Below, piece after piece: positions 19,575 through 30,727 of a stretch of 64,000 bases of DNA. The notes under the pieces were generated by a model. The model worked only from the letters and a program-made list of their open reading frames with translations, was not told the DNA's origin and did not search any database. Made by a program: the position numbers and the translations under genes. Positions within the stretch are counted from its first letter, which is position 1. Every line of letters begins with the position of its first letter. Source of the stretch: Octopus vulgaris (Eukaryota); NCBI GenBank assembly GCA_951406725.2, contig OX597838.1, positions 40,052,001 to 40,116,000 on the forward strand, read 5' to 3'.

Positions 19575-19625
19575 TTTGTCAAAATATTTTCGTCACTTTA
19601 AGACCGCGACCTGTTCACCGACAAA
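19575..19625 (-). ncRNA. Hammerhead fold with G3:C8 core (module C copy 1; others at 22501-22551, 23969-24019, 25435-25485, 28942-28992, 30424-30474)
   Basis: tttgtcg GTGAACA g gtcgc ggtcttaaa gtgac GAAA atat TT tgacaaa. Confidence 0.65.
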
Positions 19626-19895
19626 AATCCGTGCTGCACCGATTTTTGTGTGTTTCTTAAATGGCTTACAAACACCTTCCACGCTGCAATTGTTTACATA
19701 TATATATATATATATATATTTACATATATATATACATATATATATATATATATAATATATATATATATCTATATGTATATATACATATAAACATACATAC
19801 ATATATATATATGTATATATATGTATATGTATATGTATATATATATATATGTATGTATATTTATATGTATATATATATATATATATATATATATT

Positions 19896-20126
19896 ATTAG
19901 AGACAAAACCACTATTTTGCAAAATAAACAAGGAAAGACTTAATCAATACATAAAATTTTAATAAAAAGTCAAAAAATTTGAAACTGACTTATTGGAAGT
20001 CCACCTGAAGATTGTCGATCAGGACAAGAAACAATTGTAGTGGCGATTTTTTTGACTTTTTATTAAAATTTTATGTATTGATTAAGTCTTTCCTTGTTTG
20101 TTTTGCAAAATAGTGGTTTTGTCTCT
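19896..20126. repeat. Fold-back element: ~80-bp inverted repeats enclosing an HHR
   Basis: gagacaaaaccactattttgcaaaa...aaaagtcaaaaaa is the reverse complement of ~20047-20126. Confidence 0.9.
20001..20043 (+). ncRNA. Minimal type-I hammerhead ribozyme
   Basis: ccac CTGAAGA ttgtc gatcag gacaa GAAA caattg TA gtgg; all three helices and core intact. Confidence 0.85.
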
Positions 20127-24600: not shown

Positions 24601-25579
24601 TGGTTGCAAATGATGTAATTGCGCTATAACAAAGGCCTTTTTTTTTTGAATTTTTGTATTTTCGAAATTGTAAAGATAATTTATGTATTTATATATAGAA
24701 AAGCACAACGCCACAAAACCTATAATTGTTGTCTACGAATATATACATAGATATATTCATTTATACACTCATAAATATACTTACAACATATACAGTCAGA
24801 AACACATATGCTGCCAGGCTTATGTGTTCATGTATATTTGAGTGTGTATGTATATATATATATATATAAAAAGAGAGAGATACATATATATACATATATA
24901 TATATACATATATATATATATATACATATATATATATATACATATATATATACACACATATATATATACATATACGTATATACATATATACATATATATA
25001 TATATATATATATATATACATATATATATATATATACATATATATATATATATATATATATATATATATACATATATATACATATATATATATATATATA
25101 TATACATATATATACATATATATATATACATATATATATATACATATATATATACATATATACATATATATACATATGTATATATATATATATATACATG
25201 TATATATATATATATATATATATATATATATATATATATATATATATATATATATATATATATATATATATATATATATATACATATATATATATATACG
25301 GAGATGTACCTGCATAGCGTGTGATTTGATCTGAGATCGTGTGCTGAAACGAAAACAATTGCAGCGTGGAAGGTGTTTGTAAGCCATTTAAGAAACACAA
25401 AAGCCGTTCGATTCACTTCAACATTTAAGTTTAATTTGTCAAAATCATTTCGTCGCTTTAAGACCGAGACCTGTTCACCGACAAAGATCCGTGCTGCACG
25501 GATTTTTGTGTGTTTCTTAAATGGCTTACAAACACCTTCCACGCTGCAATTGTTTACATATATATATATATACATATAT

Positions 25580-28162
25580 ACAAAACTACAGTCAACAAAA
25601 AATAATGAGGGAACTAAAATCCATATTAAACCCATACAAAGCAGGGCTCACCGACAAAGAATATGATTATATGACCAATTTCACAAGTAAAACTAGCCAA
25701 TTCTACGGTATACCTAAGATCCACAAAAGTGAAAAAATAAGCAACGCATGCAAGATAGCTACAGACAAAATAATTAAAGTCCCTAATCCTAATGACCTCA
25801 AATTGAGACCCATAATAGCAGGTCCCGCATGCGAAACCCACCGCCTCAGTAACTTTTTAGACACCCTGTTAAAACCACTCCTCAAACATGTCAAAAGCTA
25901 TATAAGGGACGACTTAGATATGCTCAATCACCTACCGAATACTATAAACAAAAACACCATACTGGTATCCTTCGATGTAGTCAACCTCTACTCCAATATC
26001 CCCCACAACCTAGGACTAGAGGCAATCCAATTCTGGCTAGAGAATCACGCCAACGAACTACCACACCGCATCAAAAAAGAATTTGTGATAGAAGGGGTTA
26101 AATTCATCCTGGAAAATAACTTCTTCGCCTTCAATGACAACTTCTACCGACAAAATCGGGGACTGCGATGGGTACACGAATGGCCCCCTCCTTTGCCAAC
26201 CTAGTCATAGGATACCTAGAGATCAGTCTGTATCGTAAGGTTCTAGAAAGATATGGCAGCCCTTTCTCCATCTACATAGAAAACAACTGGAAGAGATATC
26301 TAGATGACTGTTTCATCCTTTGGCATAAAAATATAGAAAAACTCATAGAATTCCAGAAAATTTTAAACGGACTGGACGTAAACATCCAATTCACGATGGA
26401 ATATAGCCAACAACAACTCCCCTTCCTCGATATCCTCATTAAGAAAGCTAATAATATAATAGAAACAGACATATACTATAAGCCTACAGACTCTAAGCAA
26501 TATCTTCCATTCAATTCATGCCACCCCAGACACACCAGGATGAATATCCCCTTCAATCTAGCAAAAGGATATGCACTATAGTCTCTAACGCAAACACCAG
26601 AGACACACGACTACAAGAACTAAAAGATACCCTAATCACCAGGAACTATCCACCTTCACTTATTGACAAGTGCATTCAACGTGCCCTTCAACTTAACATC
26701 AAGGAACTGAGACATCCCAAATCAAAGAAAAACTTACAACCAAAAGCCTTACCATACATCTCCACACACAACCCTCTCAATAACGAAGCCTTCGACACCA
26801 TCCTCCACAACATACCCCTCCTAAAAAAAGACCACAGAATGAACACAATCCTCCAAACACACACGATCATAAAAAGCAAAAGACAGCCTAGATCCATGAA
26901 AAGTCTCCTTACACAAGCCCAAATTCACTCTTCAACACAGAAGCCGACAGTAAAAAAATGTGGAAGACCCAATTGCGGGATATGCGACTATCTAATCGAG
27001 GGTTCTGAGTTCTCCTTCAAACAGGGACAACGGTTTACAGTGAAAAGCAACTTCACATGTGCTTCGGAGAACCTAATATACTCACTAACCTGCTCCGGGT
27101 GTCAAGAGCAGTACATAGGCCAAACAAAAAATGGTTTGCGTAAACGAATGGCCCTGCACAGATCCCAGATAAAAATTCCCCAAAACAGAAAAATAGCTTT
27201 TAGCCAACACATAGATACTTGCGCCAACAAAAAAACACCAAACTTCAGAATTTTCCCCTCTACCAATTTAGGGACGATACAACCTCGAGACAAAGAATAA
27301 GTAAAGAAAATCTCTTTATTACAAAATACAAGCCACTTCTTAACGGGTCTACGACAAACAATTAATATACCTCAACTTTAGAATAAAAGAAAAAAATATA
27401 TATACACACACAAATACTACACTCCATAGAATCCATTACTAATCAGCCCCTTCATAGCTATATTTACACCCATTCATATTCTCCCTTCTCTGTTTTTTTC
27501 TTCTTCTTCTTCTTCATCATCATCGTTATCATCATCATCGGCGTCATCATCATCGCCACCATCATCACCACCATCTTCTCCTTCTCCTCCTTCTTCTTCT
27601 TCTTCTTCTTCTTCATCATCATCGTTATCATCATCATCGTCGTCATAATCATCACCACCATCACCATCATCTTCTCCTTCTCCTTCTCCTTCTCCTTCTT
27701 CTTCTTCTTCTTCTTCTTCTTCTTCTCCACCCCCTACCCCTTAAGTTTGTCACTAATGTTTTTTAGTATAACACCTAGCTAATTCTATAAACAAGCCTGT
27801 CGATATAAATATTCTCCTGAATTGAACTGAGACTGCCAGCCGCCACTGACCATTCAAAATACGACCATCAGGGCACTCCCAGATTCTCCCACCCCCTTTC
27901 TTCACCAGCCTTCCCTCTACTACCCTACCAAGAACTCACAACTACCTCGAACACACAAGTGCAAACAAGGGAGTCAGAGAAAGGCAGAATGCCACTTAAA
28001 TCTGAACACTACTATAGAAATATTGTTTTAAAAAAACTTTTCTTCTAATTTTTCTAAATTTAATTATTTAATCGTTACAGTTGAAAAGGTAAAATGACCG
28101 AAACCGGTACTAAATGTTCATATAAAATTATTTTATTTTCTATTTTTTACTTGTTTTTTCAT
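25580..28162 (+). mobile_element. Penelope-like element (Neptune-type), 5' truncated, RT + GIY-YIG with about 3 frameshifts, followed by 3' UTR/pLTR
   Basis: FYGIPKIHK, LRPII, SFDVVNLYSNIP, MGTRMAPSFANL, RYLDDCF, PFLD, YYKPTD, KCGRPNCGIC linker, LIYSLTC...YIGQT; flanked by (TA)n. Confidence 0.92.
28078..28112 (+). ncRNA. Hammerhead-like fold with U3:A8 core in the PLE 3' region
   Basis: ag TTGAAAA ggt aaaatg acc GAAA ccgg TA ct; stem I is weak. Confidence 0.5.
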
Positions 28163-30727
28163 ATATATATATATATATATATATATATATATATATATAT
28201 ATATATATATATATATATATATGAAAGTATACTTATAATTTAAAAATAAACATACAAATTTCCGCACGAAGACAAGTAGTCTATGCCCTAGGGACGTAGC
28301 TTCAACCGTGTTCTTTCTGATGTGAAATTGCTACCCAGGTATCGGTTATCTTTTGAATTATCCTTAATAAGATAATTCATTCAATTACTCAAATATATAT
28401 ATATATATATATATATATATATATATATATATATATATATATATATATATATATTTATATACATAAATATACACATATATATATACATATATATATATAT
28501 GCATATATATATACACACATATATATACATATATATATACATATATATATACATATATACATATATATATATACATATATATATGCATATATATACATAT
28601 ATATATATACATATATATACATATATATATATATATATATATATATATATATATATATATATATATATATATATATATATATATATATATATATACATAT
28701 ATATATACATATATATATATATATATATATATATATATATATATATATATATATATATATATATATATATATATATATATATATATATAACATATATATA
28801 TTACGGAGATGTACCTGCATAGCAAGTGATTTGATCTGAGATCGTGTGCTGAAACGAAAACAATTGCAGCGTGGAAGGTGTCTGTAAGTCATTTAAGAAA
28901 CACACAAAAGCCGTTCGATTCACTTCAACATTTAAGTTTAATTTGTCAAAATATTTTCGTCGCTCTAAGGCCGCGACCGGTTCGCTGACAAAGATCCGTG
29001 CTGCACGGATATTTGTGCGTTTCTTAAATGGCTTACAAACACCTTCCACGCTGCAATTGTTTACATATATATATACATATATATATACATAACATATATA
29101 TATATATACATGTATATATATATATATATATATATATATATATATATATATCTATATGTATATATACATATAAACATACATACATATATATATATATATA
29201 TATATATATATATATATGTATGTATGTATATGTATGTATATGTATATGTGTATATATATATATATATATATATATATATATATATATATGTATGTATATT
29301 TATATGTATATATATGTATATATATATATATATATATATATATATATATATATATATGTATATATATATATATATATATATATATATATATATATTATAT
29401 ACATATAAAGACACAGAGGGAGAAGAGGGAGAGATATACAGGGTCCTAATAAATTACCTACATCGTACTCCCCCTTTCAGTCCACCAGCTGGACAAAGTT
29501 TTATTATGAAACGCTCGAACAATCAACCCCTACGGGGGCGGCTCACCATATTGCTGCAAAGTAATTGATGGTTGCAAATGATGTAATTGCGCTATAACAA
29601 AGGCCTTTTTTTTTTGAATTTTTGTATTTTCGAAATTGTAAAGATAATTTATGTATTTATATATAGAAAAGCACAACGCCACAAAACCTATAATTGTTGT
29701 CTACGAATATATACATAGATATATTCATTTATACACTCATAAATATACTTACAACATATACAGTCAGAAACACATATGCTGCCAGGCTTATGTGTTCATG
29801 TATATTTGAGTGTGTATGTATATATATATATATATAAAAAAAGAGAGAGATACATATATATACATATATATATATACATATATATATATATATACATATA
29901 TATATATATACATATATATATACACACATATATATATACATATACGTATATACATATATACATATATATACATATATATATATACATATATATATACATA
30001 TACGTATATACATATATACATATATATACATATATATATACATATATATATATATACATATATATACATATATATATATATACATATATATACATATATA
30101 TATACATATATATTTATATACATATATATATATACATATATATATACATATATACATATATATACATATGTATATATATATATATATACATGTATATATA
30201 TATATATATATACATATATATATGAATATATATATATATATATATATATATATATATATATATATATATATACATATATATATATTACGGAGATGTACCT
30301 GCATAGCGAGTGATTTGATCTGAGATCGTGTGCTGAAACGAAAACAATTGCAGCGTGGAAGGTGTTTGTAAGCCATTTAAGAAACACAAAAGCCGTTCGA
30401 TTCACTTCAACATTTAAGTTTAATTTGTCAAAATCATTTCGTCGCTTTAAGACCGAGACCTGTTCACCGACAAAGATCCGTGCTGCACGGATTTTTGTGT
30501 GTTTCTTAAATGGCTTACAAACACCTTCCACGCTGCAATTGTTTACATATAGATATATATATATATATATATATATATATATATATATATATATATATAT
30601 ATATATATATATATATATATATATATATATATATTGTATGTATGTATGCATATTTATATGTATATATATATATAAAGTGTAGGAAGAAATGGAGCTGAAC
30701 AAAGATTTAACAAAATTCCTTTTTATT

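Follow-up and report, generated by a model that had tools for sequence, protein, structure and literature searches.

Minimal type I hammerhead ribozymes have been described in metazoan Penelope-like elements (PLEs), where they lie in both terminal repeats (pseudo-long terminal repeats, pLTRs) and have one additional nucleotide that lies between 9 and 10.1, a G10.1-C11.1 pair and a palindromic stem III (Cervera and de la Pena 2014, PMC4209133). The tertiary pair between residues 3 and 8 is C3:G8 or U3:A8 in these hammerheads, and natural U3-A8 forms have been reported (PMC3088659, PMC4209133), one of them in Schistosoma Cercyon (PMC4209133). The reversed pair is known from the laboratory. In the Penelope hammerhead of a lizard (Anolis Poseidon PAc), changing both residues at once (C3G/G8C) brings back part of the cleavage (PMC11167929; review PMC8495972), and an engineered G3-C8 variant is more active without C17 (PMC3884650). 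In the literature covered, which is partial, only engineered mutants with G3:C8 were found; surveys or supplements may list a natural one. Here I analyse a 64,000-nucleotide stretch of Octopus vulgaris DNA (contig OX597838.1, positions 40,052,001 to 40,116,000; hereafter the window), which has six hammerhead motifs with the identical core swap in a repeat array. Judged by its sequence and position, the motif is the pLTR hammerhead of a high-copy PLE family and not a property of the array, and it represents a genuine, naturally occurring variant within an established class of ribozymes, housed in an established class of retrotransposons. The whole reading, in which the G3:C8 hammerhead of complete elements would cleave itself weakly as a dimer while the array is inert, seems to me fairly probable.

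The initial annotation had placed six copies of a hammerhead on the minus strand, and reading all six confirmed each position, as follows.

19575..19625, minus strand: hammerhead copy 1, G3:C8 core, one G-U pair each in stems I and II, palindrome intact
22501..22551, minus strand: hammerhead copy 2, core intact, U·C mismatch in stem II, palindrome broken
23969..24019, minus strand: hammerhead copy 3, U4C and A9C in the core (GCGAACC), stems and palindrome intact
25435..25485, minus strand: hammerhead copy 4, like copy 2, with an additional G-U pair in stem I
28942..28992, minus strand: hammerhead copy 5, like copy 3, a recent duplicate
30424..30474, minus strand: hammerhead copy 6, like copy 4, a recent duplicate

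Each motif is 51 nt long and runs through a stem I of 7 bp, the core GUGAACA, one extra G, a stem II of 5 bp, GAA, the palindrome AAUAUU, U17 and the other strand of stem I. The core is indeed swapped at positions 3 and 8, and G3:C8 is family-wide. The copy-specific changes noted before are correct as well: copy 1 has its G-U pairs, copies 3 and 5 read GCGAACC, and the palindrome is broken in copies 2, 4 and 6. The U·C mismatch of the last three, owing to which the pairing probability of their stem II is 0.01, had been missed. Copy 1, with a predicted cut after U17 at 19582, is the only intact one of the six; the other five are damaged. The full conserved core (a Watson-Crick 3:8 pair, U4 G5 A6, A9, G12 A13 A14, U16.1 and H17) is present in copy 1 and in the family majority, and it is lacking in copies 3 and 5. 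The folding-energy z-scores range from -0.4 to -1.8 in the window copies and reach -3.4 in an intact family copy. Taken by itself, the folding energy supports the window copies weakly and only the intact family copy clearly. The G-U changes of copy 1 were considered as evidence of selection and rejected, because the change in stem II turns the C of a CpG into T and the rate of private changes is highest in this stem (0.056 in 119 copies of four subfamilies).

The expectation that standard searches would overlook this variant was borne out. The Rfam hammerhead models gave no match in the window at the gathering score, nor in an intact pLTR when E was allowed to reach 10, and in the array region the top 150 of 199 rows were all microsatellite-driven microRNA matches without a hammerhead. 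This silence and the weak z-scores of the window copies would suit a repeat that fits a hammerhead descriptor by chance. I regard such a chance fit as extremely improbable, as the position in both pLTRs, the extra nucleotide after A9, the G10.1-C11.1 pair and the palindromic stem III match the published description (PMC4209133), and homologous motifs at the same place in related elements refute it by positional homology.

Where does the motif come from? A genome search with copy 1 gave 984 candidates on many contigs, 40 of which were scored. Exact patterns of two loop-II subfamilies matched 797 and 2,091 times with no match of the reversed controls, and G3:C8 is found in 96/100 and 93/100, respectively, of the matches listed. 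Together these are at least 2,888 exact matches, a total that leaves two further loop-II subfamilies outside the count. Upstream of the motif lies a microsatellite-rich region, and before it a frame ends that has a CX3CxxC linker and a motif of the GIY-YIG type. In the longer loci holding both, the motif follows the frame end on the same strand at a distance of about 1.0-1.5 kb. In locus L096 the hammerhead and then (TA)n come after an open frame of 839 aa, and this frame contains YVDD, Y...YIGET and, before the nuclease, the linker CQSNCAVC. The repeat is present at the 5′ end too in L104, L107 and L114, where it runs into an ATG. A complete element, L134, consists of an inverted truncated copy, a 5′ hammerhead (2742), a frame with frameshifts and a 3′ hammerhead (7003); both hammerheads are intact G3:C8 motifs, one on either side of the frame. 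The identity of the L096 frame is based on its motifs, on 53% identity to the frame at 42860-45460 of the window (RVT_1 E 0.0017, below the cut-off) and on the labels of its homologues, of which 287 proteins were found at E up to 1e-50, the best labelled as an Octopus vulgaris protein with a reverse transcriptase (RT) domain. It counts against this identification that Pfam does not recognise the L096 frame; a weak RT match was found in PDB.

The element has the features of an endonuclease-positive (EN+) PLE, namely a single frame with RT and C-terminal GIY-YIG, pLTRs, an inverted 5′-truncated copy and a tail. Elements of the Neptune/Nematis type (PMC8557442) likewise have an RT followed by a C-terminal GIY-YIG-type domain with a CX3CxxC linker, (TA)n targets, partial tandems, an inverted truncated copy and a tail, although their tail is 30-40 bp as against about 55 nt in the octopus family, whose 3′ region is long and microsatellite-rich. 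This likeness is one of linker (CX2-5CxxC, CQSNCAVC in L096) and architecture. Among 280 pLTR pieces, one site is the 3′ end of 96 and a second site, about 55 nt further, that of 125, and 40 of 45 inverted pLTR pairs combine one short with one long end. By their sequence layout, the two end sites and the short/long inverted pairs are the tail pattern described in PLEs (PMC8557442, PMC11167929). The cut site was also tried as the 5′ end of copies and dropped: none of the 280 pieces, most of which were picked for holding the whole motif, starts exactly there.

The predicted cut lies 56 nt upstream of the ATG. A branch-point-like CTAAC, a pyrimidine tract and an AG that ends 14 nt before stem I form a predicted splice signal, similar to the intron end just upstream of the hammerhead in D. 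virilis (PMC4209133); no spliced joint was seen in the RNA contigs. Presumed-RNA contigs cover the pLTR and the frame, though contigs cannot show ends, strand or level. In one subfamily an open frame crosses the motif. Coding constraint on the hammerhead was nevertheless rejected, because the true frame starts 56 nt past the cut, a stop precedes the ATG and the length of loop II varies. As in the published elements, most copies are single, dispersed and truncated, with close inverted pairs (PMC4209133). The octopus hammerhead differs from the published ones in its G3:C8 pair, in its extra nucleotide (G, against H in the published consensus), in a longer stem I of 7 bp and in a UUU cut site (PMC4209133). 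Whereas the C3G/G8C rescue mutant is engineered and partly active (PMC11167929), the octopus version is natural, family-wide and known here from sequence alone.

Is the 3:8 pair maintained among related elements? A metagenome scan gave 31 loci, and the 15 in which the match reaches towards the frame end were examined. The same fold was found in the sense tail behind the frame in 9 of the 15, in none of the antisense tails and 0.05 times per shuffled set, with a descriptor that was relaxed after the tails had been read. The extra G and the palindrome are present in all nine. Their 3:8 pair is C3:G8 in seven and U3:A8 in two, paired in 9/9; two of the seven C3:G8 relatives are one sequence, with a damaged G12. 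In the protein tree the octopus family is sister to the C3:G8 family of the window (98/96), within a clade of C3:G8 and U3:A8 members (100/99). As the family nests among such relatives, G3:C8 is, by this comparison of sequences, derived, and the 3:8 pair covaries among the related elements. The covariation check suggested at the outset thus came out positive, with C3:G8 or U3:A8 at the same place. One loose end is that some contigs, from runs that carry the codes of two other organisms, have the G3...C8 core as well. Four subfamilies of the octopus family (119 copies) differ in loop II and in the flanks and keep the core, the stems and the palindrome; the loop differences are partly circular, since the groups were defined by the loop.

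The sister family occupies 42400-46000 of the window. It is young, with 150 scored copies about 99% identical and frames of up to 1,312 aa. Its hammerhead in the window combines C3:G8 with A9C, and stem III is mismatched at the centre. Further variants were seen among related elements. At 28075-28116 on the plus strand, the end of an inserted PLE has a U3:A8 hammerhead with the palindrome ACCGGT, which was read by eye; a better-paired relative of it is found in L100. A "Poseidon-type" label for this element, which is inserted between copies 4 and 5, was wrong, since the element has a CX4CxxC linker. C3:G8 folds with eight-base palindromes occur at 20005 (plus strand), 30807 (minus strand) and 13577 (minus strand), two of them with a long loop II, and are probably pLTR pieces of other families. 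In the tail of L142, 89 nt after the frame, the 15.1:16.1 pair is reversed (U-A) within the palindrome. L144 combines U3:A8 with C9.

Unpaired cores are found within the octopus family as well. There are 142 exact copies with G8; all 100 of those listed have G3 (G3·G8), and 45 of the listed copies lie on contig C16. The G3·G8 sublineage includes the loci L217, L228-L231, L286, L289 and L290 on G000:C16, and L239-L268; the copies on C16 look like a burst confined to one chromosome. The inspected copies have different flanks and end points, i.e. separate insertion sites. C3·C8 is rare (17 copies), and no C3:G8 copy was found in the family, as all 17 C3 matches have C8 and all 100 listed G8 matches have G3. 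G3·G8 was also considered as the ancestral intermediate, which the data do not bear out; a 40-row tree with an unresolved base gave no order of G3·G8 and G3:C8, and the oldest subfamily is mostly G3:C8.

How might the motif work? In the proposed mechanism, the AAUAUU palindromes of two RNA copies would pair to form stem III of a dimer, and G3 would pair with C8 and so place the 2′-OH of residue 8, in keeping with the known role of the G8 2′-OH in hammerhead catalysis (PMC6155905). Cleavage would follow U17, 56 nt before the start codon, and would be weak, probably aided by the element's own protein, as in the lizard element (PMC11167929). U17, which the sister family already has, may have permitted G3 by avoiding a G3-C17 trap. 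As U17 is common in the clade, it would be a permissive background and not a co-adaptation. For complete elements the prediction, a likely one, is weak self-cleavage of the motif as a dimer.

Several observations weigh against this reading. The model energies are -27.2 kcal/mol for the designed double hammerhead, -29.4 for two monomers and -31.3 for the best cofold. The different flanks of the G3·G8 copies imply that a core without the 3:8 pair has moved too, whether in cis or in trans. A9C was found in the approximately 30 copies of the sister family that were read. Subfamily-diagnostic changes fall on 0/42 structured and 6/90 non-loop flank positions, which is not significant (p 0.18). In the lizard element, hammerhead mutants insert in vitro as well as before (PMC11167929).

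Much of this would also fit a motif of the same pLTR origin that is a catalytically dead or dispensable relic, in which the swap occurred by drift through an unpaired stage and the fold serves the element in protein binding, in splicing or in translation, or simply hitch-hikes. The mobilised G3·G8 copies, the presence of A9C in a young family with 99%-identical copies and also in L144, the UUU cut site and the lizard element, whose insertion in vitro does not need cleavage and in which no RNA ends were seen at the cut (PMC11167929), all speak for it, as does the success of Naiad elements without canonical hammerheads (PMC8557442). On the other hand, two transversions restored exactly a Watson-Crick pair, which is hard to explain without selection on the tertiary 3:8 pair; this pair is formed in all nine relatives with the motif; and G3:C8 dominates even in the oldest subfamily (93/100 listed), C3·C8 being rare. 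I therefore take the relic to be possible but unlikely. Improbable, in my judgement, is the further-reaching view that G3:C8 is an active and selected natural form of the rescue mutant, that the G3·G8 copies are survivors of an unpaired stage, which would have been tolerated since transposition does not strictly need cleavage, and that the 166-nt array of locus L141 is a young retrozyme that arose from this pLTR and releases circles of unit length.

L141:1590-6580 (G000:C2:17908000-17913100) lies on another chromosome than the window and comprises 30 head-to-tail 166-nt units with the same G3:C8 hammerhead, 27 of them fully intact. Animal non-LTR retrozymes (PMC7229834; bioRxiv 10.64898/2026.07.22.740005) are head-to-tail type I hammerheads too, with a proposed pLTR origin, and this array fits them better than the array in the window. 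Each unit consists of the pLTR as far as its short end and about 20 nt that come from elsewhere; therefore, amplification at the DNA level is as likely as a retrozyme origin. The columns that vary number 2/42 against 19/124 (p 0.11), and selection in this array is not supported. L141 may be a young retrozyme or a satellite amplified at the DNA level, and it offers the best natural substrate for dimers, better than the window array.

If the motif does cut, a pair known naturally as C-G or U-A also functions in the form G-C, in thousands of copies across the genome, and hammerhead searches should require 3:8 pairing instead of fixed letters. The natural alleles of one element (G3:C8, G3·G8, C3·C8 and the A9C of the sister) bear on the need of Penelope elements for a ribozyme. 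The window array itself adds little. Its unit of about 1.45 kb contains modules A, B and C with (TA)n between them, and module C is a long pLTR piece joined to an inverted short piece of about 50 bp, with an identical junction in all six copies. The components are as follows.

19451..19638, minus strand: 5′-truncated pLTR piece with copy 1, with the long end and tail, running into the first codons of the element frame (92.6% identity to complete element L134 by blastn)
19644..19695, plus strand: inverted short pLTR piece that ends at the family short end and forms an arm of about 50 bp around the hammerhead
22564-22619, 24039-24089, 25504-25555, 29012-29062, 30493-30544: inverted short piece in the other five copies
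22361..22564, minus strand: pLTR piece with copy 2 (blastn)
23827..24032, minus strand: pLTR piece with copy 3 (blastn)
25297..25498, minus strand: pLTR piece with copy 4 (blastn)
28800..29005, minus strand: pLTR piece with copy 5 (blastn)
30284..30487, minus strand: pLTR piece with copy 6 (blastn)
22840..23252, no strand given: array module A, matched at this locus only among the 40 scored candidates
17535-17823, 18723-18855, 20280-20542 + 21660-21798, 24440-24839, 29395-29807: further copies of module A
23287..23455, no strand given: array module B, a different dispersed repeat
18894-19061, 21833-22000, 28224-28392: further copies of module B
20467..21564, plus strand: RT fragment of a long interspersed nuclear element (LINE) inside one module A (RVT_1 E 4.6e-11)
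25583..28159, plus strand: different, broken PLE between copies 4 and 5 (GIY-YIG E 0.0018, below the cut-off)

The LINE fragment and the other PLE were inserted after the array duplication. Over 247 columns, copies 3 and 5 differ at 2 positions and copies 4 and 6 at 1, so that these pairs are, by sequence identity, a recent block duplicate. The six copies are not independent because of these near-identical pairs and the one common inversion junction. The same junction in all six implies one insertion that was duplicated later: a pLTR piece, truncated and in part inverted, was inserted within a (TA)n tract and then copied by local DNA duplication. The window array is likely an inert, decayed by-product of this pLTR insertion.

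The initial annotation had proposed instead that a host transcript from the minus strand reads through all six copies and that these pair and cut as dimers in the manner of a retrozyme or ribozyme satellite. The six copies do lie on one strand, and copy 1 could supply a catalytic half that forms 6/6 stem III pairs with the substrate half of either copy 3 or copy 5. However, intact and broken palindromes alternate along the array, so each neighbouring pair joins one of each and forms 4/6 stem III pairs (pairs computed). A full stem III dimer helix is possible only for copies 1-3, 1-5 and 3-5, with the full core in copy 1 only, and the partners that this single complete half-site needs lie 4.4 or 9.4 kb off, across (UA)n tracts. 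Within its own inverted arm, copy 1 forms stem I with a probability of 0.13; in a complete element the value is 0.93. Animal retrozymes have units of 170-400 nt (PMC7229834), whereas a unit here measures about 1.45 kb and is mixed DNA that includes the locus-specific module A, and there are never two consecutive intact motifs. No host gene was found in a Pfam scan of 150 of the 274 stop-to-stop frames of at least 55 aa, which would miss short exons; the domains above the cut-off were transposon domains only. Thus, with five of six copies damaged, no full dimer helix between neighbours and no host gene found, the intronic dimer or retrozyme interpretation is not supported, and the host-RNA model as a whole is very unlikely. 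Changes among the six copies are concentrated in the hammerhead (8/18 events in 51/247 columns, p 0.02, post hoc), which may be due to chance or to selection against cutting a transcript; the latter would be compatible with that model. Module A has zero cover in the RNA contigs of 3/4 runs and three 31-nt pieces in one, which carries no weight either way.

Module B is a dispersed repeat in its own right, about 165 nt long and present in high copy number, with 98% identity between chromosomes. Elsewhere in the window, a frame fragment with a zinc-knuckle-like CPRCG...HAIVQC (41751-42443, minus strand) is probably a LINE end, and a 63-bp tandem array of 10 copies at 61892-62540 is open in several frames.

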